Shown piece after piece: positions 5,737-20,193 of a stretch of DNA of 64,000 nt. The position numbers were made by a program, and so were the translations under genes. Within the stretch, counting starts at the first letter, position 1; each line of letters begins with the position of its first letter. The notes under the pieces are model-generated. The model saw only the letters and a list, made by a program, of their open reading frames with translations, did not search any database and was not told where the DNA came from. This DNA is from a virus (lineage: Duplodnaviria; Caudoviricetes): the IMG/VR virus record IMGVR_UViG_3300016744_000001; one strand, written 5' to 3'.

Positions 5737-8283
5737 CTACAACTCATTTATTTTTGTGTACAGGTTGATTTCCTGTGGAAGCTGGATGTTGTCTTTCTTC
5801 AAACAGACAACATCCTTGTACAAGAACCCAGAGTACAAGGTAGGATCATGATAGATCATCCACAACTGCGGAGCATATTGCGAATCCATGTATCCATTCA
5901 GCCATTCCAAAAGAGTTTGTTTGTGACGTGGATCAAATCCATCATCACACTCATCGAAGAACATCGGGAAATCATTCCCGTTAGCAGCGAATACCAATGC
6001 TGGGTAAAACGCAAAGTTGATTGCTGCTTGTTGTGACTTGCTCAAGCGACTGATTGGTCCGGGTTGTTTGTTATTGCACCGAGCCATGAAGTCACAGCTC
6101 ACATCGTCATGTTCTTTCAGTAACTCAAGCTGGATTGGGTACGTCCAGATCTTGTTAAGAATGAAGTTGACGTTCTCAAGGATGGCATTGATGAACTGCA
6201 ACGTGTGATGATGAGGCATACCGGATTCAGGGTTTAATCCGATCTCAAGATAGTTGTAGATCTTCTGTCGCTTCTCAATCGTTTCGATGAGAGAAGTGAT
6301 CTCCTCAGTGTACCGTGCCCGAAGAGTTTCTTGTTCTTTGAGCTGATTGGTCAGGGTGTAGATCTGGTTATCCAATTCCTGCTTCTGTTCTGTGAATGAT
6401 GGCAGCACACAAGTTTGCAAGTACTGGATATACTCATCAAGCATGACGTACTGATGATGGCTAGCTACGTTCTTGAGTAAACGTTCCCCAGCTTCATACA
6501 GCTTCTTATACCGTTCCCCAAACTGGATTTTCTCATTGATATCCTGACAAAGGGTGTGCAGCATAATCGCATCCACCTGACACTGTTGGAGTTGTGCAAG
6601 TTTCTCTTGATAGAGCTTCTTGAGTATCTCCATCGCTGGTGTCTGAACTTTCTTGAGAGCATCAATTGTTGACTGAGCTTGTTGAATCTCTTTCTCCAAT
6701 TCAACTTTTTCTCGAATAAACTGCTGTGCCTGAATGGTCATGTGACACTGATGCAACCAGTGATTCAAATCACCATTCAAGATTTTCAGTAGATCTCGTT
6801 CAGTGTACTGCCAAACAGTTCCCGATAATAACTGGAACACCTGTTCAATTGTGCTTAACTGTTGCTTCAGGATGCCGAGCATATCAAACATTTTGTTTGA
6901 GACTCGTTCAACTTTCTGAAGTTGTTTTGATTGTTGTTCAATCTCCACTTTCAGGTTCTTCGCTTTAACTTCAAGTTTTTTACGTTGCGACCCAAAGTGT
7001 ACAGCGTAATCACAGGTTTTACAATTGCTAAGGATTTCCGTCGGACCATTCAGCAATTGTTTTAGCTCTTCTTCAATCTGAAATAGCTGATCGTCGGCTA
7101 TCCGCATCCGTTCTTTGTGATGTTGCCAACGATTTTGCAATTGGTTATACTTGTAGTTGACTCGATTGCATCGATCCGTGGGATACCAAACTCGATGAAG
7201 TTGAGCGTTCTCACCAGTAAACAAATCGTACAATCGTTCTTGTACCTGCTGATGTCTTGAAACCTGTGAGTCGGGAATGGTTGGAAACTGAAAGAACTCC
7301 TTGATCTCATCGAGGCGTTTCAACTTGACGGAAATCAAGTCAATACAGTCCTTCTGCTCATTGTCTTGGACTGTGAACATTGAAGGATCATACTGCTGCA
7401 GCTCTGACTGAATCTTTTCAAATGACTCCCGTGTGTTTTTCAACTGCTCTTCAAACTGGCTACGTTGAGCAACCAACGCGGTCATCTGGTTCTCAAACTC
7501 GTCTACTTCAAATCGCATCGGAGCTGTGGCAAGAATATGTTGCACCCGCTTACGATATTTTACGGCTTTCTCAACCGTCACTTCTTCATGTTCAATCGTC
7601 AGACGTTCATCTTGATATTCCTTGATTCGACTATTGAGCAGAAAGATTTCATTCCCAAGATCCAGCTGCTGCTGACTTAAGATCGTGGACTTTTCCATCA
7701 TGTCAGCGATGATCTCTTTAGAGAGTAATTTCTCTTCAACTGTCTGCTTTCTGGTGTACAACAACTGAAGATTACTCTTAGCTGTTCGCAGTTCAGACTT
7801 TGCTTGTTTGTGCAATTGGACAATAAAGTCTGGTACGGATGGACTCATACTCAGTAGTAACTGCTTTCGATCAGCAACCGACATGTTAGTTACCTGATAC
7901 CGACAATGTGTCAGGTCGTCAATCAACTGAGTATAACCAAGGTGTTGAGCACACAAGTCAATTTGGGTGTTGGTTAACCCATTGACGTTCAACTCAGCAC
8001 CATTCTTGCAGAATGAATGTTTCCCCTGCTTCTTTTCAAAGCTTGACGTGATAACGTATTCTTCACCGTCATGCAAGATCGTTAGCTTCTTGTAACCACC
8101 GGTATGGTAATCACTCTTAGTTGCTGGAAGAGGAGTGATTTGTGCAATCAGTTTTGATTTACCTGAGCCATTTGTACCGATAACAATCTGTACCTGACTC
8201 ATTGCCTCTATCTGTATTGATCGAATGTCTCCAACGACATCCAACCATTTCAATCCTTTTATTTCAACTTTCGTAACGTACAT
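5737..8283 (-). CDS. sbcC: SbcC/Rad50-like SMC ATPase
   Basis: Walker A GTNGSGKS, long coiled coil with central CKTC zinc hook, signature LSKSQ, Walker B FFDECD, YH switch. Confidence 0.9.
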   Translation of the reverse strand: MYVTKVEIKGLKWLDVVGDIRSIQIEAMSQVQIVIGTNGSGKSKLIAQITPLPATKSDYHTGGYKKLTILHDGEEYVITSSFEKKQGKHSFCKNGAELNVNGLTNTQIDLCAQHLGYTQLIDDLTHCRYQVTNMSVADRKQLLLSMSPSVPDFIVQLHKQAKSELRTAKSNLQLLYTRKQTVEEKLLSKEIIADMMEKSTILSQQQLDLGNEIFLLNSRIKEYQDERLTIEHEEVTVEKAVKYRKRVQHILATAPMRFEVDEFENQMTALVAQRSQFEEQLKNTRESFEKIQSELQQYDPSMFTVQDNEQKDCIDLISVKLKRLDEIKEFFQFPTIPDSQVSRHQQVQERLYDLFTGENAQLHRVWYPTDRCNRVNYKYNQLQNRWQHHKERMRIADDQLFQIEEELKQLLNGPTEILSNCKTCDYAVHFGSQRKKLEVKAKNLKVEIEQQSKQLQKVERVSNKMFDMLGILKQQLSTIEQVFQLLSGTVWQYTERDLLKILNGDLNHWLHQCHMTIQAQQFIREKVELEKEIQQAQSTIDALKKVQTPAMEILKKLYQEKLAQLQQCQVDAIMLHTLCQDINEKIQFGERYKKLYEAGERLLKNVASHHQYVMLDEYIQYLQTCVLPSFTEQKQELDNQIYTLTNQLKEQETLRARYTEEITSLIETIEKRQKIYNYLEIGLNPESGMPHHHTLQFINAILENVNFILNKIWTYPIQLELLKEHDDVSCDFMARCNNKQPGPISRLSKSQQAAINFAFYPALVFAANGNDFPMFFDECDDGFDPRHKQTLLEWLNGYMDSQYAPQLWMIYHDPTLYSGFLYKDVVCLKKDNIQLPQEINLYTKINEL

Positions 8284-8403
8284 GCGAACCTTCTTAGTTA
8301 AGTTGGAAGCATATCACAATACCTTAACGTAGGAAATCAGGGAACTAACCATTTTTAGTGACTATCATTTGGCTAGGTTTACCTAAACATTAAGAGGATC
8401 ACT

Positions 8404-8964
8404 ATGTCACTCATGAATAATGATGCAATGTTCCCGTACGTTGACATTGATGCCATCTACCTGAAGTGTGGCAACAATCAACGGCTAAAAGAAGTTTATC
8501 GGATGCTGCTTAACCAGCTCTACAGTGAATGTGATCAAGTGGTCTGTCCGATCACTGGTGATGATGCAACTAATCGGCACTTCACCTACAGCACATTCGC
8601 AGTGAATGCTGAATCATACCAAGCGTCCTATCATGACGAAGTGTACTCTTGGCATGTTGGTCCCACCGGGATCACAGTTCCGTATGGTAATGCCTTGTCA
8701 TTTCACATCTGCAGTTCTGACTGGCTGGCAAAGGTTTCCCGCTCATTGCGGTGTATCTGGCATGCTGCTCGATTGATCCCCAACGACGACAAATACCATC
8801 GGACATTCGTCAACATCAGTATCCCGTGGTTGGCGTTGGACAAACCAATCGACACCGTCACAGACCAAGAGTTGATTGACTACGCTGAAGTAGTCTTAGC
8901 ATCAATCTCTGGCCAAGTGTGGGTAAAGAACAAGCAGGTCATCAGTCTGCCAGCTTACCAATGA
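8404..8964 (+). CDS. hypothetical protein (first gene of radical SAM island operon)
   Basis: 186 aa, AGAGGA RBS, 7 nt upstream of 8972. Confidence 0.7.
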   Translation: MSLMNNDAMFPYVDIDAIYLKCGNNQRLKEVYRMLLNQLYSECDQVVCPITGDDATNRHFTYSTFAVNAESYQASYHDEVYSWHVGPTGITVPYGNALSFHICSSDWLAKVSRSLRCIWHAARLIPNDDKYHRTFVNISIPWLALDKPIDTVTDQELIDYAEVVLASISGQVWVKNKQVISLPAYQ

Positions 8965-8971
8965 GGCAATC

Positions 8972-9508
8972 ATGAACGAACTTATCATCAAAATCACAAT
9001 TGTGTCAAAACCACTGGCTTACTGGCAAACAAATGATCCAGTGATCCCATTTGGTCAAGCGGCGCATGTTGTTGAAAACGCCATGAGTCAGGTTCGCATT
9101 GGTGATGGGGTCGCCAAATGGAGTGCCCTTCCTGATAAGAACATTGACATGAGCGTAGCTCCTCACCACGGCACACATGACACAAGTGGCACTGATCCAA
9201 TCAGTATCCACCTGAGTCAAGTCAGTGACTTCACTGCACAACATGGCTCAATCGCAGCTTCAACTACTGTGGTTGGGCACATCCAAGTTGCCAGTGATGC
9301 TGACATCGCTACTGGTACAGAAACCGGCAAAGCTGTCAACCCAAAACAGTTGAAGACAGCTTTGGACGCTCTTTCATTGGTTGCCATCCAAGCCACTGCA
9401 CCGGAAAAGAAAACTGTGTTGTGGGTAAATACTACCGACTCAACGATCAACTACTGGAACGGGTCGGCTTGGGTAACCACAGTTGGGCGTTTTGCTGACG
9501 TGACCTAA
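8972..9508 (+). CDS. short tail-fibre/adaptor protein with Mtd_N-like N-terminus
   Basis: W.TNDPVIPFGQ...RIGDGVAKWSALP (Mtd N-terminal-like), fibre repeat ASTTVVGHIQVAS...GKAVNPKQLK, C-terminal LWVNTT...YWNGSAW. Confidence 0.75.
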   Translation: MNELIIKITIVSKPLAYWQTNDPVIPFGQAAHVVENAMSQVRIGDGVAKWSALPDKNIDMSVAPHHGTHDTSGTDPISIHLSQVSDFTAQHGSIAASTTVVGHIQVASDADIATGTETGKAVNPKQLKTALDALSLVAIQATAPEKKTVLWVNTTDSTINYWNGSAWVTTVGRFADVT

Positions 9509-9519
9509 AGGAGTTTGAA

Positions 9520-9789
9520 ATGGCCGTTAATGAAACGATTACTCAAACTACCTTTACTGGGTTCAGTCGATTCCCTAAGTTTGTGCACATTCAAGAACTG
9601 AAAACTGCGCTTACTCAACTGGATGCGTACAGTAAGAATGTTGTTAACTGCAACTGTGCCCCAAGTAACTGTTGCCAGGCAAACTGTTCTTATACCTGTC
9701 AATCCTGTCAAAGTTGTCAATGGTGTCAAACTTGTCAAAGTCAATGCCAAAATTGTTGGAACTGCAATTGTGGTGATGACGGATCTTAG
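9520..9789 (+). CDS. Cys-rich small protein 1, putative radical SAM substrate
   Basis: 89 aa, AAGGAG RBS; 14 Cys in the C-terminal half (NCNC..NCCQ..CQSCQSCQWCQTCQ..CWNCNC). Confidence 0.85.
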   Translation: MAVNETITQTTFTGFSRFPKFVHIQELKTALTQLDAYSKNVVNCNCAPSNCCQANCSYTCQSCQSCQWCQTCQSQCQNCWNCNCGDDGS

Positions 9790-9797
9790 GAGGTAGC

Positions 9798-10112
9798 ATG
9801 TCTTTACCAACCAGACAAGAAATCATTGACATGACTACTCAATTTGAGCAAATCCGTGACAGTGTAACCTACAAATCTGGTCAAACAAAACCAGTAATCG
9901 ACAAGCATACTCACACCGTAACTTTCCCGGAGAGGGTGACACTTACTTCGCTGCAAGCTGGGGTGAAACAACTTGAGAGTTATTACTCTCAAAACTGCAA
10001 TTGTTTAACCAACCCACAATGTTGCCAGACTTGTCAAATCTGTCAGGTGTGTCAAAGCTGTCAAAGTTGTGAAAGTGGTTGGTGTGAAAATAACTGTTTG
10101 CAGTGCAACTGA
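9798..10112 (+). CDS. Cys-rich small protein 2, putative radical SAM substrate
   Basis: 104 aa, AGGAGG RBS; 12 Cys (NCNC..CCQTCQICQVCQSCQSC..); paralog of 9520-9789. Confidence 0.85.
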   Translation: MSLPTRQEIIDMTTQFEQIRDSVTYKSGQTKPVIDKHTHTVTFPERVTLTSLQAGVKQLESYYSQNCNCLTNPQCCQTCQICQVCQSCQSCESGWCENNCLQCN

Positions 10113-10124
10113 TAGGAGACCATC

Positions 10125-10964
10125 ATGCTCAAGATATACTCCCTGGCTGTTGATCAGACAAGAAAGTTCTCAATTGATCTGGTGGACAACCAACTTTCTG
10201 TAAAAGTCATTGATGACTCAACCAACGGGATCGTCAATGAGTGCTCTCCCACCTTGATCGAGTCTTACCACTCTTATGGACTGTTTAGTGGCAACTTCGT
10301 TGAACGAGTGCCCAGCACAATTTTCAAAGAGTTGGATCAGGTGATCCATGCCGGATCACTCAAACTCGTGAACTATCTCCGCCTTGGTTATGGCCCACGG
10401 GAATCGTTCATGGGGATTGCTGACTTTTGGTCACACAACCCACTTGGTCAAGTTGACACTGGTTTGTACACCGACCAAGAAAAGGACATTGTGATCACTG
10501 TCTTTGGTGGTTGGAATCCGGATAGTATCGTCAATAGCTCGATCCCATACGAAGTCCGCACCCCACTGCCGGCAGACACATTTCACTCGCATAAATCCAA
10601 TGCCCGTTGGACGCTTTGGGATCGATATGCGGTCGGAATCAATGGCTTGGAATACTGGGCAGACCAAAACGGTATTCGAAAAGACACCAATGCAGAAACA
10701 ATTGCAATTCCAACAAAGGAATGTTTGGAGTTTAATCTCCAGAAGTATACCTCTGATTGGTCAACAAAGCTTGAACGCCCAGTCGACTGTAATGAACTAA
10801 CGCTTGAAACCACTTGTGGTCTTTTGCGCACAACCAGAGTCCCGTTGGTTGAAGGCAAAGCAAAATTCCACCTGTACCCGTTTGGTCATCTTGGTGAATT
10901 CAAAATCAAGGTTGGCTGGCGATGGTACCCTGTTTGGGATGAATACAAGTTCACGTTAATTTAA
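10125..10964 (+). CDS. radical SAM cassette accessory protein A1
   Basis: C-terminal ELTLETTCGLLRTTRVPL..GKAKF...G...KIKVGWRW matches the C-terminus of 16481-17482. Confidence 0.75.
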   Translation: MLKIYSLAVDQTRKFSIDLVDNQLSVKVIDDSTNGIVNECSPTLIESYHSYGLFSGNFVERVPSTIFKELDQVIHAGSLKLVNYLRLGYGPRESFMGIADFWSHNPLGQVDTGLYTDQEKDIVITVFGGWNPDSIVNSSIPYEVRTPLPADTFHSHKSNARWTLWDRYAVGINGLEYWADQNGIRKDTNAETIAIPTKECLEFNLQKYTSDWSTKLERPVDCNELTLETTCGLLRTTRVPLVEGKAKFHLYPFGHLGEFKIKVGWRWYPVWDEYKFTLI

Positions 10965-11018: not shown

Positions 11019-12098
11019 ATGAACAATCTGCTTTCTATCCCTGCTGTCAGAACTATCTTTCTGATGCTTGGACCTAAATGTAATCTGTCTTGCAAGTATT
11101 GCTTGCAGTCTTTAGATACGACTCCGGTTAAGCTCAACCCCGACATTTTTCCATTCATTGAAAAGATTGCTGAAGCAAACCCAGAAACACCAGTACACCT
11201 CCAATTTTTTGGAGGTGAGCCTTTGCTTCACTGGGATTCGGTAATCAAGGAAACACTAGATCATTTCGAAGGTGTTGAGAACATCCAGTTTTCCATGATC
11301 ACCAACGGTGTTGGTCTTACTCAAGAAATCGTGGATACCTGCAACCAGCGAAATGTTAGCATCTGTGTGTCGTGGGATGGGCCAAACACACAAGAACTTC
11401 GTGGGTTTGATGTTCTGAATTCTGAAAAACACCGAATATTGTTGTTGCAAGTTATTCGGCTTAGTTTGTCAGCTGTCGTCACATCCGAGTCATATCCAGT
11501 AGAGATCATCGATGCTGCGATGCCATTCGTTCTTGATTACCATGCTGCTACTGGAAATCACTGCTCGATCAACTTTGACACCATCTTTCAATCGAAAGAC
11601 CCCGAGCTTGAAAAGCTTGATCTCTCAAGATTGTACAACGATAATCAGATCTTGTGTGCCGAACTGAAAAAACGGTTGCTGAACCAAGAACACAACCCGT
11701 ACTACGCTCATCACGCTGATCAGATCTTTGGGATGTTGACCAAGTCAATTAAAAACGACACCGACTTCTTGTACAGTACCTGTGCATGTGAAAATGGGTA
11801 TGCTGTGCTCAACCTTGGAATTGACGGTACACTGTATCAGTGTCACAATGTGGCCACCGTACTCGGGAATATTTACTCCGGTTACCTTCCGTATATGAAG
11901 GCGGTGATCCGCAATGATCCTACGAAAACTAGGGTGGTTGAGACTTGTCAGCATTGCCCAGTTGTTGCAATGTGCAAAGGGGGATGCATGCTTGTTCCAG
12001 CTGACCAAATCAACGGTAATTACTGTGGAATCAAACGAGCGATGTTTCTTCCGTTCATTGAGCTTCTATTGTCCTTTGACAAGGATACTCCAAAATGA
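11019..12098 (+). CDS. radical SAM/SPASM domain protein
   Basis: CNLSCKYC, FFGGEPLL, ITNG, SWDG; SPASM Cys CAC...YQC...CQHCPVVAMCKGGC...C. Confidence 0.95.
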   Translation: MNNLLSIPAVRTIFLMLGPKCNLSCKYCLQSLDTTPVKLNPDIFPFIEKIAEANPETPVHLQFFGGEPLLHWDSVIKETLDHFEGVENIQFSMITNGVGLTQEIVDTCNQRNVSICVSWDGPNTQELRGFDVLNSEKHRILLLQVIRLSLSAVVTSESYPVEIIDAAMPFVLDYHAATGNHCSINFDTIFQSKDPELEKLDLSRLYNDNQILCAELKKRLLNQEHNPYYAHHADQIFGMLTKSIKNDTDFLYSTCACENGYAVLNLGIDGTLYQCHNVATVLGNIYSGYLPYMKAVIRNDPTKTRVVETCQHCPVVAMCKGGCMLVPADQINGNYCGIKRAMFLPFIELLLSFDKDTPK

Positions 12099-13057
12099 AA
12101 TCACTCACCATCCATTTAGGTAGCCAGTGCAACGCCGCTTGTGAGTACTGTCACTGTGAAAAAAATGGTCATCTTGAACCCGATGCTGAAGCATTAGCCG
12201 TCAGGATTAATGAACTTCCAGAACATTCCAGAGTGAAGTTTCTTGGTGGTGAACCATTGGTCTACTGGGACACAATCGAATACCTCCAAAAGAAGTTTCG
12301 TTTGAAGTATCAGTGGTCAGTTGGTACAAATGGTATCCTTCTTGACAAGTATCTTGACAAGTTGAAACGATTTCAAACTCAGATTTGTATCTCTTATGAC
12401 GGCAGCAGCTCTCTGCGAAAAATGCCGGTCAACTGGGATATCCTTTACCAGCTATCTGAATTGTGGTTGAGTTATACGGTGATGAACACCAATTGTGATG
12501 TGCTCAAAGAGATGACATTCATCGATGAGATCTCTAAAGAATACGTCACTCCTATCTGGTGCATTCCTCACTTCATGCATGCCTTGGTCCAAGAGCATCA
12601 ACCCTTTGTCATTACCGATCAGCAGCTTGATCAACTGATCGCTGATTGTCAGCTGGCAATTGACTACTTTGTTGATGCCGCCCCAACAAGTGTTCCAATG
12701 TCCAAGTACTTTGGAATCTATTTGTGGATTGCATCAAAAGTTCACCAGAACAATTTTTCCTTTGGTGAGACGACTTGCTTTAACAACAATCTGATCAAGA
12801 TCAACAATCAAGGGCAGTTGGTTTCTTGTTTGTACGATCAAAGCTTACACCTTTCTGACATCAATTGGTTTGATGTTCAAAAAGCTGAACTCCGCGAGCA
12901 TCAACCAAAATGTCAAACCTGTTTGGTGTATCGCTACTGTGGAGCAGCTTGTTACAAAAGCAAGTTCTCGGATCATGAATGTCAATTTTACAAAACCATG
13001 ATTCCATGGTTCGTGAGGAAGTATGGCCATAGACCACTTATTCGTCTTTGCCGATAG
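12095..13057 (+). CDS. radical SAM/SPASM domain protein
   Basis: CNAACEYC, GGEPL, TNG, SYDG; SPASM C...VSC...CQTCLVYRYCGAAC...C; ATGA overlap with the upstream gene. Confidence 0.93.
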   Translation: MKSLTIHLGSQCNAACEYCHCEKNGHLEPDAEALAVRINELPEHSRVKFLGGEPLVYWDTIEYLQKKFRLKYQWSVGTNGILLDKYLDKLKRFQTQICISYDGSSSLRKMPVNWDILYQLSELWLSYTVMNTNCDVLKEMTFIDEISKEYVTPIWCIPHFMHALVQEHQPFVITDQQLDQLIADCQLAIDYFVDAAPTSVPMSKYFGIYLWIASKVHQNNFSFGETTCFNNNLIKINNQGQLVSCLYDQSLHLSDINWFDVQKAELREHQPKCQTCLVYRYCGAACYKSKFSDHECQFYKTMIPWFVRKYGHRPLIRLCR

Positions 13058-13685
13058 CATCCAACTCCCGTGTAAACTGATCGTTGAGCGGGCCAATGGT
13101 GTCTATCAGTTCAAGTTGGACTTCTTGGATCAGGTAGTGGAGGTATCTCCAGAACTTCTAGAACAAAACTCTACTGTTGGTATCATGTACAACGCTGAGC
13201 TTCAAAAGCTTTACCCGTTGTACAACCTTCGAGAAGTCGCCAGCTTCATCGGTTGCAACTCAAAGCAACTGTGCCCTCAACTTGGGCAGAATTGCTTTGC
13301 TCAGATTGACAAGAAGTCTGATGAAGTCACGTTCATTAAGATCTTCTTGCCTCAGAGCCAACTGACGTGGCAGTCTGCCACGATTGACCGGAACACTCTG
13401 ACGATGGTTCAACTTGATCAGCTCACAGCAATTGATCAAGAATTCCAGCATGTCTGGGAAATCATTGATGTTTCGGTGATCAGTGATCGTCTTCTCGTCT
13501 CTATTGATTTCCATCGGAAGTATCCTGAACCAGTATTCCTTTTCTACGGTGGATTGTCACAAGAGTTGCATGAAGGGGTGCAACAGCTCTCGTTCCCATT
13601 CTTGAAAGGGAACAACCTTCACATCCGGTTTGACCGTACCAGGTTTTCGACTTGGCAGTATTCTGTGGACAGCAATATTAAATGA
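13023..13685 (+). CDS. hypothetical protein (last gene of cassette 1)
   Basis: 220 aa, GAGG RBS, overlaps the rSAM stop, followed by a hairpin. Confidence 0.7.
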   Translation: MAIDHLFVFADSIQLPCKLIVERANGVYQFKLDFLDQVVEVSPELLEQNSTVGIMYNAELQKLYPLYNLREVASFIGCNSKQLCPQLGQNCFAQIDKKSDEVTFIKIFLPQSQLTWQSATIDRNTLTMVQLDQLTAIDQEFQHVWEIIDVSVISDRLLVSIDFHRKYPEPVFLFYGGLSQELHEGVQQLSFPFLKGNNLHIRFDRTRFSTWQYSVDSNIK

Positions 13686-13768: not shown

Positions 13769-14530
13769 ATGGCTGATATGACTGCAACAATCCCTGTCAA
13801 ACCAACAGTGTTTCCGGAACCATTTGCCAATTCTGGCGATACCACACAGCTCCCTCAGACAACCACCACTCCCGGCAAAGCATCGTTCGATGCTGGTTTC
13901 CCTGAGGAATGCTCCAAACCTCTGGCGGATGGTGGTCTCCCTCCCAGTCGTATTGACTTCAACTCAATTTTCAAATTGATCACGGAGTGGTTGCATTACT
14001 TCCAGTCTGGTGGCCAGGTCACCTACAATCAGGACCTGAACTATATCACTCCTGCTCTGGTGTTCTACAACGGCACAGGATACGAATGCACTGCCGACAA
14101 TGGTCCTGCAGTTGCTGGCATCGGTATCAAAATTCCTGGTGCTGTGGGCAGTGAAACTTTCTGGAAGCCTGCTTCAGGTGAGCTGAACATCAACCACTTT
14201 GGCAACAATGCGAACTCATACCTTTTGACAGGTTACTACTATATTGAGGACGCATACGCCACGCTGAACTTCCCAGTCATCGGTTCTGGTGGGTTCTTGA
14301 CCGTGTCACGTCGTGACAACAATCTGGATCAGGCATTCGTACTGAGGACAGACGCAACCAAACTGTATCGCCGCAATTCGACAGACGGTGGTACCACTTG
14401 GTCAACTTGGACAAAGGTCGTCCACACGACTGACATTCGTGGCGACGCCTACTGCCAGCGTTTCATCACCATGTCTGATCCAGACCATGCGATCGGTAAT
14501 GACAACGACCTGTGGATTGTGTACCGGTAA
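13769..14530 (+). CDS. tail fibre protein
   Basis: N-terminal PFANSGD..LP...GKASFDAGFP..CSKPLADGGLPPSRIDFNSIF (myovirus fibre attachment domain) plus pyocin-knob-like segment (GYYY...GFLTV...LYRR...WSTWTK). Confidence 0.85.
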   Translation: MADMTATIPVKPTVFPEPFANSGDTTQLPQTTTTPGKASFDAGFPEECSKPLADGGLPPSRIDFNSIFKLITEWLHYFQSGGQVTYNQDLNYITPALVFYNGTGYECTADNGPAVAGIGIKIPGAVGSETFWKPASGELNINHFGNNANSYLLTGYYYIEDAYATLNFPVIGSGGFLTVSRRDNNLDQAFVLRTDATKLYRRNSTDGGTTWSTWTKVVHTTDIRGDAYCQRFITMSDPDHAIGNDNDLWIVYR

Positions 14531-14553
14531 TTTTTACCCCCAAGGAAATCATC

Positions 14554-15612
14554 ATGACAGACTGCGTACTTTACTGGAATGGTTCTGGTGGCAAAGTTGT
14601 CTCACAGGGTATCCTGTTTGAGATCAGCACCAAACCTGACCTGGGTTTCGAGTACGAAACCCTGAGCTACGAACCATCCATGAACTTTGCCCACTACACG
14701 TTGGCAACCAAGGATGAAAACAACCTCAGCACCATCCTGAAAGTTGATCTTTCAGAAGCTGAACTCGTCAAGGTTCAGAATTTCTGCAATGTCTTCATTG
14801 ATACTGCAGACTACGAAGTGGCCGCCTACAACACCGATCGAGTGTTCGTTGGTGTGATCATGAAGTCCTTGGCGATTGAAAAGAACCTGAAGTACTCAAT
14901 CACCGAGCGGCCGCCCATGCCGATGGCGAAGTTCAACGAAACCACCGGCAAATGGGAACCCATCTTTGTGGCCTTCAAAGAAGATGGTTTTCCGCTGTTC
15001 AACGTCACCAAACTGTCAGACGACATGGTGATGTTCTTCACTGAAACCGAATGGAAGGCACTGCCCACTCAGCCTTCTTACCGGTACTCACTGGATTTTG
15101 CGACATTGACTTGGATGGACAAACGTGATCTTGTCCGTGTCAAGAATGATGCCCTCATGACACTGCGGGTGTACTACGAACATCAGGACATTCGTGCGAA
15201 TGCTGGTTTCCGCACACCCAAGGAAATGATCCAGTGGAACATCCAGTACAATGAAGCCAAGGCGTTTACCGCCGATTCCAAGGTCAGCACTCCTTTCCTT
15301 GACGGCTTCCTGTCCAAGAATCCTCAGAGCACCAAAGAAGAACTGTGCGCTAAGATTCTTGAAGACTACACTGACGAAGCCCTGTTTGTGGCCGGCGCCG
15401 ATCATGGTGAGATGTACAACTACGTCTACCGGATCAAATCTGCCACCACCAATGTGGCAGTTGACGCCATCGTTGACGAGGTCAATGCCAAACTGCAGAA
15501 GTACAAAGTGGTCAACTACAACCAGGCGTATCCTTCTGCTCCGGCCAAAGAAGGCGAAGAAACTCTTGTAGTTGTCGGAGGTACCATCAACCATGGCGTC
15601 GGCAGTCTATAA
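14554..15612 (+). CDS. tail fibre assembly/chaperone-like protein
   Basis: Follows the fibre gene; E..QW..QY.EAKAF......TPFLD......KEELCAKIL resembles fibre-assembly proteins; start at ATG 14554. Confidence 0.65.
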   Translation: MTDCVLYWNGSGGKVVSQGILFEISTKPDLGFEYETLSYEPSMNFAHYTLATKDENNLSTILKVDLSEAELVKVQNFCNVFIDTADYEVAAYNTDRVFVGVIMKSLAIEKNLKYSITERPPMPMAKFNETTGKWEPIFVAFKEDGFPLFNVTKLSDDMVMFFTETEWKALPTQPSYRYSLDFATLTWMDKRDLVRVKNDALMTLRVYYEHQDIRANAGFRTPKEMIQWNIQYNEAKAFTADSKVSTPFLDGFLSKNPQSTKEELCAKILEDYTDEALFVAGADHGEMYNYVYRIKSATTNVAVDAIVDEVNAKLQKYKVVNYNQAYPSAPAKEGEETLVVVGGTINHGVGSL

Positions 15613-15940
15613 AGTACAGGTGCGGGCCCAAGGTGCTTATCGTGGGTGTGTGCCTTTTGTGAAGGTTGCTGGTAAATACATCAATCCCAAAGCTATTTAC
15701 GTGAAAGTGAATGGTCTTTGGCGCGCAGCTTATGACAACTTTTACTGGTCGTACTACTGGATGACTGGTAACTGGTCTGGTTGTGCATGCGTCGGCAACT
15801 GCAGTAGCCGAGCAGTTTGGTGCAATTACTATCCGGAAATGCTCACCATGCCTGACAGCTATTGCTCGACGTCTGGTGACAAGCCTGCCACTGTTCAGTG
15901 GTGCAATTGTAATTGTGCGTGTGCCTGCTGTTGTGACTGA
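15593..15940 (+). CDS. Cys-rich fibre-associated protein with TSP1-like module and CxC tail
   Basis: GGAGG RBS before ATG 15593; VKVAGKY...IYVKVNGLWR fibre-type repeat, WMTGNWSGC..C..RAVWC...DSYC..KP..QWC, tail CNCNCACACCCD. Confidence 0.8.
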   Translation: MASAVYKVQVRAQGAYRGCVPFVKVAGKYINPKAIYVKVNGLWRAAYDNFYWSYYWMTGNWSGCACVGNCSSRAVWCNYYPEMLTMPDSYCSTSGDKPATVQWCNCNCACACCCD

Positions 15941-15989
15941 GGTTGCGACTAATTAGCAATTCAATTGCCAGTAAATAACAGACCTTTAT

Positions 15990-16023
15990 ACAGAGTACCC
16001 ACCTTTTAAGGTGGGTACTCTGT
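15990..16023. terminator. hairpin after Cys-rich gene (cassette 2)
   Basis: acagagtacccacctt-tt-aaggtgggtactctgt. Confidence 0.7.
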
Positions 16024-16086
16024 CAATGATTAATCTTGTTATCTATAAAGATGGTACCAATCTAAAACAATTTCATGGAGTGCAAC

Positions 16087-16488
16087 ATGAGTAACGAAGA
16101 TACCAAATCTGAGGCAGAACGTTTTTCTCTTCCCAGTCAGTTTGTGATGGAAGAGGATACTGAACAGTATCGTCTCAAAACCGATAAAGTGTACACCTAT
16201 CATCGTGATGGTGAACTGGTGATCCAAATCGACTTCAGTGACTTTGCCATCAACAAAGACGACATCGACCGCCTGGGTGAAGAAGCCGTAATCAACCAAA
16301 TCCAGCAGGATGCGCTGGTGTTGGCGATGAAGCTGACTGGTGGGCTGAAACCAGGAGATGTTGAAAAACTGAACAATGAAGAAGTACGGGTTCTTACCGA
16401 AACTGAGATCGAAGACGCCACTGCGTTCATTGCCAGTCATCAGCAGTTCATGAGCGACCCCCAACAAACGGAGACCCCCAATGGGTAA
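16087..16488 (+). CDS. acidic hypothetical protein
   Basis: GGAG RBS; overlaps the start of 16481. Confidence 0.7.
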   Translation: MSNEDTKSEAERFSLPSQFVMEEDTEQYRLKTDKVYTYHRDGELVIQIDFSDFAINKDDIDRLGEEAVINQIQQDALVLAMKLTGGLKPGDVEKLNNEEVRVLTETEIEDATAFIASHQQFMSDPQQTETPNG

Positions 16489-17482
16489 ACCAACCTTGTT
16501 TATCATCCGGAAAGAGATGGACATCCTTCGTCCGTTTGTTATTCGAGTTACCCGTGAGGAAGACCTTCTTCAGGTAGAGTACCTTTACCGCACCATGGTC
16601 AAAGGTGAGCAGAAGGACTTCTTGGTTCTCGGGTATCGGCTTACTCGTGAGTTCCTTGAGAAGCGCAATGACTGGAAAGACAACACCCAATTTGGCATGC
16701 ATCTCAAGGACTATGACATCTCTTACATGCACAGCTGTGTCAGGATCATCCAACAGTTCGTTGACTCTGGATTGTCGTATGCCGATGTCTGCGCTGCAGT
16801 CAGTGCTCACATGCCCAGATTCAACACAATCAACCGCAACGGATACCTGATCAACATCAGTGCCGCCAGCTACATCGGTAAAGTTTCTTCCGTGGAAGCT
16901 CATGTGTTGATCCCTGCTTACCGGGTGATCAACTGGGTACAGAAACTGAAGAGCACCAAGTTCACGGAATGCTGTGTCAACTTGGCAGCTGACCCTGCTT
17001 GCACCGTAGAAGTGATCACTGGTGATCGGACGCAGGACATCTGCAACAGCAGTGAGATCTACAAAGATCTCATCCACAAGGATGAAGCGATCAAACAGCA
17101 GGTTTGGCGTCCCAAACTCAAACTCACCCAGCAGCCAAAACGGTATCCGATCGTCAACAACTTCCCCAGTCGCACTCACTCACTGTTGCGCACGGATCTG
17201 GTTGTCGAAGATTTCACCGGCGTGGTCTTTCCTGATGAATCAGTCACATTTGACGTGCAATTGGTTCGGGAGTGGTACGGTGATGAAATCCACTCCCCGG
17301 CTGAAATCTATCTGGAATGCGTCAATGGTTACTTGCCGAAGACACGTATCCGGTTGGATGAAAACGGTCATGGTACTTTCCGGTTCATTTCCCTTGGTCT
17401 TGAGAAGGGTGACATCATGAAGGTCAAAGCTGGTTTCAGGTTCATGACAAACTCTGCTGAAGCGGATATCGCAATCATCTAA
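16481..17482 (+). CDS. radical SAM cassette accessory protein A2
   Basis: C-terminal EIYLECVNGYLPKTRIRL..GHGTF...G...KVKAGFRF homologous to 10125-10964. Confidence 0.75.
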   Translation: MGKPTLFIIRKEMDILRPFVIRVTREEDLLQVEYLYRTMVKGEQKDFLVLGYRLTREFLEKRNDWKDNTQFGMHLKDYDISYMHSCVRIIQQFVDSGLSYADVCAAVSAHMPRFNTINRNGYLINISAASYIGKVSSVEAHVLIPAYRVINWVQKLKSTKFTECCVNLAADPACTVEVITGDRTQDICNSSEIYKDLIHKDEAIKQQVWRPKLKLTQQPKRYPIVNNFPSRTHSLLRTDLVVEDFTGVVFPDESVTFDVQLVREWYGDEIHSPAEIYLECVNGYLPKTRIRLDENGHGTFRFISLGLEKGDIMKVKAGFRFMTNSAEADIAII

Positions 17483-17493
17483 CAGTCATTCTC

Positions 17494-17523
17494 ACAGAGT
17501 CAGGGAGTACTCCCTGACTCTGT
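17494..17523. terminator. perfect palindrome between accessory gene and rSAM genes (cassette 2)
   Basis: acagagtcagggagt|actccctgactctgt. Confidence 0.7.
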
Positions 17524-17580
17524 ATATCTACTGCATTATTTATGCATCGGTTACACCAAAAATAAACCTGAGGAACAGAT

Positions 17581-18819
17581 ATGTTAAGTCTAGTCTTCAA
17601 TGACAAATCGCTTGAGAAATTCAAGATCGACTTCAATCCGTACACCATGAAGTTTGGTCAGGATGTCCAAGATATCAAACCGCTGATGACTGTGCAAACA
17701 AAGATCCACAGCAAGTCACCAAAAGTGCTCAAAATCATGCTTGGTGACGCTTGCAACTTTCGCTGTAAGTATTGCCGTCAAGATCATCATGGTCGGAAAG
17801 ATTCTTTCAATCCGGCACGATTAGCAGCATTCATGCAGATGCTCACGAACAACCTGTCACTGCATCAGCTTGAACGTGTGGAGTACTGGGGCGGTGAACC
17901 CCTCTTGTATTGGGATGAAATCCGGTACTTGATGGACAGAATCGAGACACACGTAAAACGGCCCGTAACGCACCATATAACGACGAATGGCAGTTTGCTG
18001 ACCAATGACATCGTTTCAGACATAAAGTCGCTTAAATACCTCTTTAAGCTCTCTCACGATGGTCCTGGGCAAAGTCTTCGCACGGCAGATCCATTGAAGC
18101 TGCATGAAAGCAAGATCATGGATCTGTACACCCACATGAAGACGGCTGAAGGAAGCAAGTTTCACATCAACTCGGTGCTGACCAAATTGTGTCCGTCACC
18201 TTTCACGATTGTGGATTTCTTCCGAAAGAGGTTTGACAACGATGTCTCGATCATGAAGATCGAACCAGTCATCCCGTACAATGATGATGCGTTGTCTTAC
18301 GCGATCAATCCAGCAGACATGCCGAAGTTCTCATTCCAGATCGCCAACGACATCATCCGTGGGGATATCGTCAGAAGTGTTGTGGAATACCAACAGCTGT
18401 GGGATGCTTTCGTTTTGATGGAAGCTGCCCCTGACTACATCTACAACATGACTGAAGCCAAATGTCATGGGTCACAGTTGATGACTATCTGCACTGATCT
18501 CGATGGTAACCTCACCCCTTGTCAGGTGTATGACAACTACACTCCTGATCAAGTCATCGGCCATCTGACCAAGCTGGATGACATCAAGGAAGAACTTCCT
18601 TATGCTCCGATCAATCGCGCCGGTCGTTGCACCAACTGCCCTGTGATCTCACTGTGCCGTGGGGTATGCCCACACATTGCTCCTGGTCAGCATGCTGACA
18701 CCAACTGTCTGATGCGGTACAACACGTACCTGGGTATCCTTACTGCGTTCCTGTTTTTCAAGACTCAGAAATTCTTGATTCAAGTTAACGGGGACTATTA
18801 CCACAACCAACAAAGGTAG
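17581..18819 (+). CDS. radical SAM/SPASM domain protein
   Basis: CNFRCKYC, YWGGEPLL, TTNG, SHDGPGQ; SPASM C...PC...CTNCPVISLCRGVC...C. Confidence 0.95.
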   Translation: MLSLVFNDKSLEKFKIDFNPYTMKFGQDVQDIKPLMTVQTKIHSKSPKVLKIMLGDACNFRCKYCRQDHHGRKDSFNPARLAAFMQMLTNNLSLHQLERVEYWGGEPLLYWDEIRYLMDRIETHVKRPVTHHITTNGSLLTNDIVSDIKSLKYLFKLSHDGPGQSLRTADPLKLHESKIMDLYTHMKTAEGSKFHINSVLTKLCPSPFTIVDFFRKRFDNDVSIMKIEPVIPYNDDALSYAINPADMPKFSFQIANDIIRGDIVRSVVEYQQLWDAFVLMEAAPDYIYNMTEAKCHGSQLMTICTDLDGNLTPCQVYDNYTPDQVIGHLTKLDDIKEELPYAPINRAGRCTNCPVISLCRGVCPHIAPGQHADTNCLMRYNTYLGILTAFLFFKTQKFLIQVNGDYYHNQQR

Positions 18820-18824
18820 TTCAC

Positions 18825-20156
18825 ATGCAACTGATTACCTTAAAGAATGGTACTCAGCTTAAGTTCGATCCAGTCAGCGTTAAGTTCTTCCAGATGGACG
18901 GTACTCCGATCACGGTCAGGAATGATATCAATGCTGATCAAGATTGTTCCAAAGTGAGTAACCAACTGAACATGCACATGCATGCGAACACAAGATTCGA
19001 CAACCCGAAAAACTTGCGTATCGTTCTTGGGCACGCCTGCAACTTCAAGTGCAAATACTGCAGTCAGAGTCACTCACCTCTTGACCTGCCCCCGGCCAAA
19101 CAAGTTAGCAAGTTCATGATGGACTTGTTCAAAACGACTAATCTTTCCCAGTTGAAGGTTATCCAATTCTGGGGTGGTGAACCACTGCTGTACTGGCCAA
19201 CCATCTGCTTCTTTATGGATGCATTCCGGGAGATCAATCCCAACATTGGGTTCTCTATCGTGACCAATGGTAGTTTGATCACCAAGCGCATGGGCGATGT
19301 CATTCTGAACGACGACCAGTTTGGTTTCATCCTTTCTCATGACGGTCCGGGTCAACATCTCCGTGGGATTGATCCATTGGCTCTGGGTTCTCGTACCAGA
19401 GACATCCTGTTACAGTTGGCAAAGGAAAAGGTGCCCAACCAACACCGGAAGTACTTGAATGAAGGAAGGAACTTTGCAGTCAATCCGGTGATCACCTCAG
19501 CTGTGGGTTCACTCACATCCTTGGTAGAATGGTACGACAAAGCCTTTGAAGGTTGCGAAGTACCAATCGCTGAATCAATTCCTGTGATCCCAATCCAAGA
19601 CGACACGGCACAATACGCGCTGCATCATGACGATCTACCCAAGTATACAGCGATGATCTACCACGATCTACTGAAGCTTGGGTTGCATCGTTTTGACAAC
19701 TACAAGATGCTGTATGATCTCTTCCTTCAGAAGTGGTCACTTCCGCAATTCTTGGTGAACCCCAAAAAAGCTTTGTGCTTCACCACCGATCCATACATGC
19801 TGACATTGGACCTGAATGGTAACATCTTACCATGCCAGACTTTTGCAGCTTCGGATCATCTTGGTAATGGGGAACCAGCATCTTACAGTAACCTGCTGGA
19901 TTTTGGTGACAAGACTGATCCCACCACAACCGGACCAGACATCAAAATGCCAACAGTTCATGGTTATGGTAGCCGAGGTAGTAAGTGTAGTAACTGCCCA
20001 GTAGTTTCTTTCTGCATGGGTGGTTGTCCTTACCTTGTTGGTGCACAACACGACATTGACTGCCGTGTCAAGTACCATCATTTCCTTGGACTACTGTTTA
20101 CCTTTGTCACAATGGCCTTTGGTGAAAAGGTCCTCAAAATCGAAACCCTCGATTGA
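18825..20156 (+). CDS. radical SAM/SPASM domain protein
   Basis: CNFKCKYC, FWGGEPLL, VTNG, SHDGPGQ; SPASM C...PC...CSNCPVVSFCMGGC...C; paralog of 17581-18819. Confidence 0.95.
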   Translation: MQLITLKNGTQLKFDPVSVKFFQMDGTPITVRNDINADQDCSKVSNQLNMHMHANTRFDNPKNLRIVLGHACNFKCKYCSQSHSPLDLPPAKQVSKFMMDLFKTTNLSQLKVIQFWGGEPLLYWPTICFFMDAFREINPNIGFSIVTNGSLITKRMGDVILNDDQFGFILSHDGPGQHLRGIDPLALGSRTRDILLQLAKEKVPNQHRKYLNEGRNFAVNPVITSAVGSLTSLVEWYDKAFEGCEVPIAESIPVIPIQDDTAQYALHHDDLPKYTAMIYHDLLKLGLHRFDNYKMLYDLFLQKWSLPQFLVNPKKALCFTTDPYMLTLDLNGNILPCQTFAASDHLGNGEPASYSNLLDFGDKTDPTTTGPDIKMPTVHGYGSRGSKCSNCPVVSFCMGGCPYLVGAQHDIDCRVKYHHFLGLLFTFVTMAFGEKVLKIETLD

Positions 20157-20161
20157 TGACT

Positions 20162-20189
20162 ATCCCTGCTAGGCTATCCTAGCAGGGAT
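20162..20189. terminator. hairpin ending the rSAM island
   Basis: atccctgctagg-ctat-cctagcagggat. Confidence 0.7.
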
Positions 20190-20193
20190 GTCT

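Follow-up and report, generated by a model that had tools for sequence, protein, structure and literature searches.

Cysteine-array protein pair encoded with radical SAM enzymes in phage tail-fibre modules, candidate cross-linked components of the fibre

Radical SAM (rSAM) enzymes and cysteine-rich substrates occur together in several described systems. PapB, the rSAM/SPASM enzyme of the PapB/PapA (freyrasin) system (NF047865), acts at a CX3D motif, linking the Cys to an acceptor at position i+4. In the QhpD/QhpC system (TIGR03906), QhpD makes Cys-Asp and Cys-Glu thioethers in a small subunit that is retained in a protein complex. The CXXX-repeat rSAM target systems (TIGR04114/TIGR04115) feature small Cys-repeat proteins encoded beside rSAMs. 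On the phage side, Peptidase_S74 is the self-cleaving intramolecular chaperone of trimeric fibres and spikes, such as those of the endosialidase and T5 L-shaped-fibre type. In Methanococcus voltae, the SPASM rSAM enzyme CrpC puts ranthionine cross-links on the Cys-rich protein CrpA, N-terminal protein domains helping the engagement of the substrate (PMC13692751). The literature yielded no description of rSAM-modified phage fibre proteins, and in one cyanophage paper an rSAM maturase appears merely under the label "antibiotic synthesis gene."

The locus described here lies in a stretch of 64,000 nucleotides of viral DNA (the window) and encodes two small Cys-rich proteins, CysA and CysB, next to the rSAM/SPASM genes rSAM1 and rSAM2. 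It resembles the PapB/PapA system in its enzymes of ~330 to 360 amino acids (aa) without an N-terminal RRE, in the many closely spaced Cys of the candidate substrates, each near a carboxamide or carboxylate residue, and in the Gln at i+4 of every Cys of the CQx array, which reproduces the CX3D spacing. It differs from that system in that the enzymes score only 46 to 96 bits against a cut-off of 340 and Gln or Asn would take the place of Asp as the acceptor. In contrast to ranthipeptide systems, the candidate substrates are found in phage tail modules and fused to structural domains, and genes for leader processing and export are missing. The likeness to CrpC and CrpA would lie in ranthionine thioethers placed on a protein rather than on a short peptide, but that pair is archaeal and cellular with no link to viruses, CrpC has a predicted RRE, and the CrpA motifs CAGM, CAVD, and CPLV differ from CQx (PMC13692751). 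Among NCBIfam models, QhpD ranks second for rSAM1 (73.9 bits, with a cut-off of 453), whereas the dehydrogenase genes, protease, and exporter that accompany QhpC are missing here. Compared with the CXXX-repeat targets (TIGR04114/TIGR04117), the period is 3 with an obligatory Gln instead of 4, and no model matches; none of the four rSAMs of the window has TIGR04115 among its 25 best matches. A relative of CysA, P0117, ends in the S74 domain as trimeric fibres and spikes do, whereas CysA and CysB lack it. What sets this system apart is the period-3 CQx family, its obligatory pair of A-type and B-type proteins, a six-gene cassette, and prophage hosts among the Negativicutes, together with fusions to S74, Hint, and lectin domains and a stand-alone tandem form of the N-terminal motif.

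The window is part of a contig of ~273 kb that also encodes a major head protein (phrog_3231), a DnaB-like helicase, a UvsX-like recombinase, and several tail proteins, and thus belongs to a jumbo phage. No close relative of this phage and no isolate with the family of CysA (P0001) and CysB (P0002) was found in INPHARED, where blastn of the cassette, tblastn of P0001, and a search with a 979-aa protein of the window gave no match. An SbcC-like nuclease subunit (phrog_77) is encoded on the minus strand at 5737-8283, divergent from the fibre-rSAM block, and the 120-nt gap between the two (8284-8403) probably holds the promoter of this block. Scans for sigma-70 promoters and terminators gave nothing better than shuffled sequence, except for one long hairpin after rSAM4. 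This 13-bp GC-rich hairpin (20161-20190), directly 3' of rSAM4, is the only strong terminator-like structure in the block from 8.2 to 21.9 kb.

All genes of the block discussed here are on the plus strand. The first (8404..8964, 186 aa) ends 7 nt upstream of a fibre-like gene and has no Pfam or PHROG match and no relatives among the fetched loci. The fibre-like protein (8972..9508, 178 aa), directly upstream of the Cys-rich pair, matches the tail collar fibre family phrog_910 (E 2.5e-5). A 35-aa segment of it is found at 63% identity in two proteins of the P22-like contig L005, one a 912-aa protein upstream of CysA and the other of 258 aa. CysA (9520..9789, 89 aa) and CysB (9798..10112, 104 aa) are followed by the accessory gene acc279 (10125..10964), by rSAM1 (11019..12098) and rSAM2 (12095..13057), the start of which overlaps the rSAM1 stop, and by a second accessory gene, acc220 (13023..13685). 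Fibre-like genes flank this cassette in the window.

The C-terminal half of acc279 is a beta-sandwich of Ig-like type, modeled by AlphaFold2 (AF2) as all-beta with a pLDDT of 82 to 92 at about residues 200 to 260. Foldseek returned only generic Ig-like or beta-sandwich matches to acc279 with a TM below 0.3, and an Atlas lead to Big_1/Invasin_D3 scores below 0.9. No winged helix is present in the confident part of the model, the N-terminal half being poorly modeled. The acc220 protein has no family match in Pfam, PHROG, or NCBIfam and no usable Atlas match.

CysA and CysB are each preceded by a strong AGGAG-type ribosome-binding site and lie 8 to 12 nt from their neighbors. The coordinates and strand of both open reading frames, and the counts of 14 Cys in CysA and 12 in CysB, agree with those first reported. 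In both proteins all Cys fall within the last 40 to 45 residues. CysA is composed of an N-terminal strand-helix motif, five consecutive CQx units, an NC ladder, and an acidic GDDGS end, and CysB of a longer N terminus that bears the motif, followed by an array of five CQx units and one CEx. A Cys-Cys spacing of exactly 3 occurs six times in each protein. Among 100,000 shuffled versions of each sequence, 145 (CysA) and 12 (CysB) reached this number, and 12 and 973, respectively, reached the count of CQ dipeptides. The period-3 CQx repeats recognized earlier are thus far commoner than the composition of the proteins would give.

The two proteins are distant paralogues, judged from their sequences, as the original prediction had proposed. 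They are 38% identical over 63 aa, with an E value of 0.026 in pairwise comparison and 2.6e-7 in a small local database, and each matches the orthologues of the other type elsewhere (for example, L002_605, a CysB orthologue like L005_11084 and L001_10333, matches P0001 at 6e-11). The core that they were said to share, L..A/G..QL..Y..N..CNC....CCQ, turned out to be the consensus of the whole family. A likeness had also been claimed between the ELKTAL segment and KQLKTALDAL of the upstream fibre-like protein (8972-9508). The strings are indeed alike, and hhalign of the family profile against that protein aligns them, but with a probability of only 4%, so that this likeness is no evidence of homology. 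Neither protein has an NCBIfam or Pfam family at E<=0.01, and a profile search against PDB sequences gave chance-level matches only.

Relatives of CysA are metagenomic only. A profile search of 1.84 billion representatives retrieved 120 clusters at E<=1e-3, 38 of them at E<=1e-10, with members mostly of 70 to 130 aa. The family consensus opens with M-A-x-N-G-x-I-x-x-T-x-[FW]-T and leads to the segment I-[KR]-x-x-H-I-x-E-L-[RK]-x-A-I-x-x-L, after which come N-V-D-N-C-G-N-C and CQ-containing units in variable number; an (N/D)-C ladder frequently follows, and the end is acidic. As a module, the N-terminal motif reads [FW]-T-D...I-[KR]-x-x-H-[IL]-x-E-L-[RK]-x-A-[IL]-x-x-L. Every longer locus contains two genes, one of A type (CysA-like) and one of B type (CysB-like), the latter with a longer or duplicated N-terminal motif. 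The motif also accompanies Cys-ladder proteins encoded beside more distant rSAM subfamilies (L055-L059).

Within the family, successive Cys are most often 3 residues apart (559 cases), then 5 (292) and 2 (217), with a spacing of 4 in 150 cases, and Gln directly follows 858 of the ~1,640 family Cys. Since the spacings vary and about half of the Cys are followed by Gln, the constant unit is the CQ dipeptide rather than a fixed period. Where CQx units repeat with a period of 3, Gln stands at both i+1 and i+4 of each Cys; members with spacers of 5 or 7 retain only the Gln at i+1, which leaves room for inter-chain links or for a different reaction of the CQ unit. Five A-type entries related to L005 9965-10270 (P0014, P0035, P0055, P0098, and P0127) represent one protein that is variously truncated or frameshifted, at points in or before the coding repeat of CQx, which has a period of 9 bp; these could be assembly errors or repeat slippage.

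The four rSAM/SPASM genes of the window (11019-12098, 12095-13057, 17581-18819, and 18825-20156) all belong to phrog_1802, to which rSAM1 matches at 2.5e-39. PF04055 is above its cut-off in these enzymes, and each contains CX3CX2C plus the SPASM motif CX2CX5CX3C with upstream and downstream Cys. In rSAM1 these motifs are at residues 21 and 310 and in rSAM2 at residues 12 and 273; the position of the first motif leaves no room for an N-terminal RRE in either enzyme. PapB (NF047865) is the best NCBIfam match of rSAM1, rSAM3, and rSAM4, with nearly the whole model aligned, while for rSAM2 MoaA is marginally ahead and PapB second. The PapB scores of rSAM1 to rSAM4 are 95.9, 46.4, 78.9, and 57.9 bits, all short of the curated cut-off, and their matches to characterized maturase families in general are far below curated cut-offs. 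The SCIFF maturase ScfB (TIGR03974) scored 27.8 to 54.9 bits against a cut-off of 425, and no SCIFF precursor was matched.

Three rSAM1 orthologues, used as seeds for a scan of IMG/VR, gave 60 loci. CysA and CysB lie directly beside rSAM1 in 39 of the 43 loci with a strong rSAM1 orthologue and are absent from the 15 in which all rSAM matches are weak. By local iterative searches, rSAM1, CysA, CysB, acc279, rSAM2, and acc220 occur together in about 38 loci (acc279 in 38 by jackhmmer, acc220 in about 37 and always after rSAM2), so that the six genes form a conserved cassette. The rSAM1 orthologues of L005 and L001 are 35 to 39% identical to rSAM1, and orthologues of rSAM2 are present in L001 and L002. 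CysA and CysB would be the substrates of the neighboring rSAM enzymes, and they may form a hetero-oligomer of A and B, which the co-conservation of the pair in 39 of 43 loci makes plausible. The proposal that each enzyme serves one substrate did not hold generally, in that one, four, or six rSAM genes surround one pair or protein: one in the Megasphaera prophage loci L068 and L069, four in L002 and L005, and six in L135. The lengths of the A and B arrays within a phage are not correlated (Spearman 0.22, p 0.24, over rows that are not independent), so that an in-register heteromer gains no support.

The cassette is found in phages of very different types. The rSAM1-CysA-CysB core is present in two loci of Acidaminococcus genomes, which are matched by siphovirus-type contigs with the cassette. 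The gene order of the latter is tape measure, Dit, Tal, a protein of 207 to 220 aa, two further proteins, rSAM1, CysA, CysB, a small protein, acc279, rSAM2, and acc220, with an endolysin a few genes on. In the P22-like podovirus L005, the cassette follows the 912-aa tail protein. A prophage with a reduced cassette has one rSAM and a Cys-rich protein that clusters with Megasphaera proteins; here the cassette closes the structural genes, and holin, endolysin, and integrase follow. Acidaminococcus and Megasphaera are strict anaerobes, a setting that suits oxygen-sensitive rSAM enzymes. Two contigs of ~105 kb (IMGVR_UViG_3300029577_000389, L010/L031; IMGVR_UViG_3300029127_000175, L011/L046) each carry two cassette copies ~50 to 59 kb apart. 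The identities of their rSAMs to the query differ slightly between copies (39 and 36%; 38 and 36%), so that each contig, instead of being a concatemer, may represent two related genomes that were fused during assembly.

The gene that directly follows Tal in the siphovirus contigs encodes the protein of 207 to 220 aa, and this protein too ends in an (N/D)-C ladder and an acidic tail (L047 5577-6200 and its equivalents in L009-L048); these phages therefore have three proteins with the same end. Two isolated phages, the enzymes of which are more distant members of phrog_1802, have a related arrangement. In Achromobacter phage JWF, a T4 gp36-like fibre (gp028) is followed by one gene (gp029) and then an rSAM (gp030), and a Hint domain in gp028 (L003 3664-5115) is directly preceded by an N/D-C ladder with six Cys, an instance of the ladder at a fibre end from a phage isolate. 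In Ralstonia phage RSP15, a side tail fibre that terminates in a short N-C-Q-C motif is followed by two unknown proteins and then an rSAM.

The domain fusions of the family are of the fibre type. In many relatives of ~280 aa, a Hint (intein-like) domain comes after the complete A-type module, and one Cys is both the last of the ladder and the first of the Hint domain. Two copies of the motif and a CQ array in P0117 are followed directly by Peptidase_S74 (E 2.7e-14, above cut-off); this fusion points to a mature portion that forms the end of a trimeric fibre. In P0054, P0076, and P0108, the motif and array come after a lectin-type Laminin_G_3 domain (above cut-off in P0054 and P0108), and in P0152 they come after an F5/8-C-like domain (a sub-threshold match). 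P0148 and P0151 (383 to 664 aa) bear two or three tandem copies of the motif at the C terminus without a Cys array, and the gene of P0151 is the last before holin. These fusions and stand-alone tandem copies identify the motif as an autonomous module of fibre-type proteins, and its occurrence with or without the array identifies the latter as a C-terminal module that can be added. CysA and CysB of the window have neither an S74 nor a Hint domain and end in the ladder or acidic tail. A further protein of 300 aa, composed of an F5/8-C-like domain, the motif, and a CQ array, is encoded in L135 (1825-12001) amid six radical SAM genes and a ThiF-family gene adjoining integrase genes, an enzyme set much larger than that of the window.

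We consider it moderately probable that CysA and CysB are retained structural components of the fibre, the Cys arrays of which are cross-linked, probably through thioethers, by the PapB-like enzymes encoded beside them. The occurrence of the six-gene rSAM set among the tail-fibre genes of very different phages points to cross-linked fibre parts rather than to a secreted peptide of the antibiotic-like kind. The conserved pair would then belong to the tail-fibre or receptor-binding apparatus and be present in the virion, instead of serving as precursors of released peptides. The N-terminal module, a short strand and an amphipathic helix, would be retained for oligomerization or docking onto the fibre, and it is probably also the handle by which the rSAM enzymes engage the two proteins; the recognition and structural roles are mutually compatible. 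The C-terminal part, with its CQx repeats, (N/D)-C ladder, and acidic end, would be the target of the enzymes. During infection of an anaerobic host, rSAM1 and rSAM2 would act on the Cys array, assisted by acc279 and acc220. The likely product is a set of many thioethers of the ranthionine type, each from a Cys to a side-chain carbon of a nearby Gln, Asn, or Asp, by analogy with PapB, QhpD, and CrpC/CrpA. The outcome would be a compact fibre element resistant to reduction and to proteases.

The alternative that survives best is a conventional RiPP, which we regard as improbable. The N-terminal 45 residues would be a leader to which the rSAM enzymes bind for recognition, and the Cys core would be cross-linked in the manner of a ranthipeptide or sactipeptide, trimmed by a host protease or one that was not recognized, and released at lysis as an antimicrobial or signaling peptide. 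The bipartite layout of a conserved N terminus and a variable Cys-rich C terminus in fewer than 110 aa has the appearance of leader plus core, the adjoining SPASM enzymes are PapB/SCIFF/QhpD-like, and the motif precedes Cys-rich tails beside several rSAM subfamilies, as a clade-wide leader would. However, the cassettes of the window, L001, L002, L005, L068, and L069 yielded no peptidase, ABC exporter, or PqqD/RRE, and a search for RRE/PqqD among the cassette proteins, as had been suggested, found no such family at E<=0.01. The cassette is always within tail or fibre modules, the relatives are fused to Laminin_G_3, F5/8-C-like, Hint, and Peptidase_S74 domains, and longer proteins in structural positions bear the same C-terminal ladder. 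A leader is also hard to reconcile with the tandem motifs that occur without a Cys core in large proteins, one of them in fibre position before holin. The earlier view of the N terminus as a docking or oligomerization module and not a cleavable leader is indirectly supported by these array-less copies, by internal and duplicated copies of the motif, by the S74 fusion of P0117, and by the lack of protease, exporter, and RRE in the cassettes examined.

Less probable again is a metal or Fe-S module, in which the arrays would bind Zn, Fe, or clusters and stabilize the fibre without covalent cross-links, either like metallothioneins or in the way that metal staples the tips of certain trimeric fibres, with the rSAMs acting on something else or needing their neighbors only as scaffolds. 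The CxxC and CxC spacings, with 12 to 14 Cys in 40 to 45 residues, fit this explanation, CxxC arrays being classical metal ligands, as do the ladder and acidic end common to several proteins of each phage and the prediction that the arrays do not fold alone. It leaves unexplained why, in phages of unrelated types, two to six rSAM/SPASM genes are tightly and specifically conserved together with the arrays; moreover, the near-invariant residue after Cys (858 of ~1,640) is Gln, which is no metal ligand, and no metallothionein or ferredoxin family of Pfam or NCBIfam was matched. Finally, CysA and CysB are quite unlikely to be non-virion assembly factors, that is, chaperone- or scaffold-like fibre helpers or rSAM redox buffers that bind the fibre transiently via the N-terminal motif outside the particle, since, although small chaperones are commonly encoded after the fibre gene in phage fibre operons and both proteins are small and largely predicted to be disordered, the module forms the mature C-terminal end of the lectin-domain relatives and precedes the self-cleaving Hint and S74 domains, placements that mark parts that stay in the fibre.

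A more far-reaching form of the cross-linked fibre component can be drawn from the period of the array, and it is to be taken as speculative. The CQx array would be a trimeric rod with three residues per turn, polyproline-II/collagen-like or similar, in which the Cys of each chain, aligned in a column, are opposite the Gln column of the neighboring chain and the rSAMs staple the chains to each other by Cys-Gln thioethers. Several fibre proteins would be held together covalently at the (N/D)-C ladder ends that they have in common, which would act as joints. The AF2 monomer of CysA has a confident helix at residues 21 to 38 with an extended segment before it, and the Cys array has a pLDDT below 50 and no confident fold. 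A prediction of the CysA homotrimer, with three copies and an alignment of 40 rows, reached 0.33 against a mark of 0.42, and the sole, indirect pointer to a trimer is the S74 fusion of the homologue P0117. Were such a rod to exist, it would be the first component of a virus particle that is enzymatically thioether cross-linked, by chemistry of the RiPP type.

A second, different fibre-rSAM cassette follows on the plus strand of the window (13769..20190). It contains a fibre N terminus (13769-14530), an ORF at 14512-15612, and a third Cys-rich ORF (15572-15940) of 122 aa with 13 Cys and a C/N/A ladder end. An accessory protein (16481-17482) is related to gp047 of Ralstonia phage RSP15, which sits between the side tail fibre and the rSAM gene of that phage. 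Two further enzymes complete the cassette, rSAM3 (17581-18819; PF04055, phrog_1802, SPASM motif) and rSAM4 (18825-20156; PF04055, phrog_1802, with TIGR04085 SPASM above cut-off), and the 13-bp hairpin at 20161-20190 comes after the latter.

If CysA and CysB are cross-linked fibre components, phages of anaerobes would build parts of their host-recognition apparatus with the radical SAM chemistry known from natural products, and not use it to make a diffusible compound. Thioether cross-linking by rSAM enzymes would extend from peptides and one archaeal protein to the structural proteins of viruses, and the presence of several rSAM genes (phrog_1802) beside fibres in many phage genomes would be explained. 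The six genes would represent a compact and genetically portable cassette for hyper-cross-linked protein modules.
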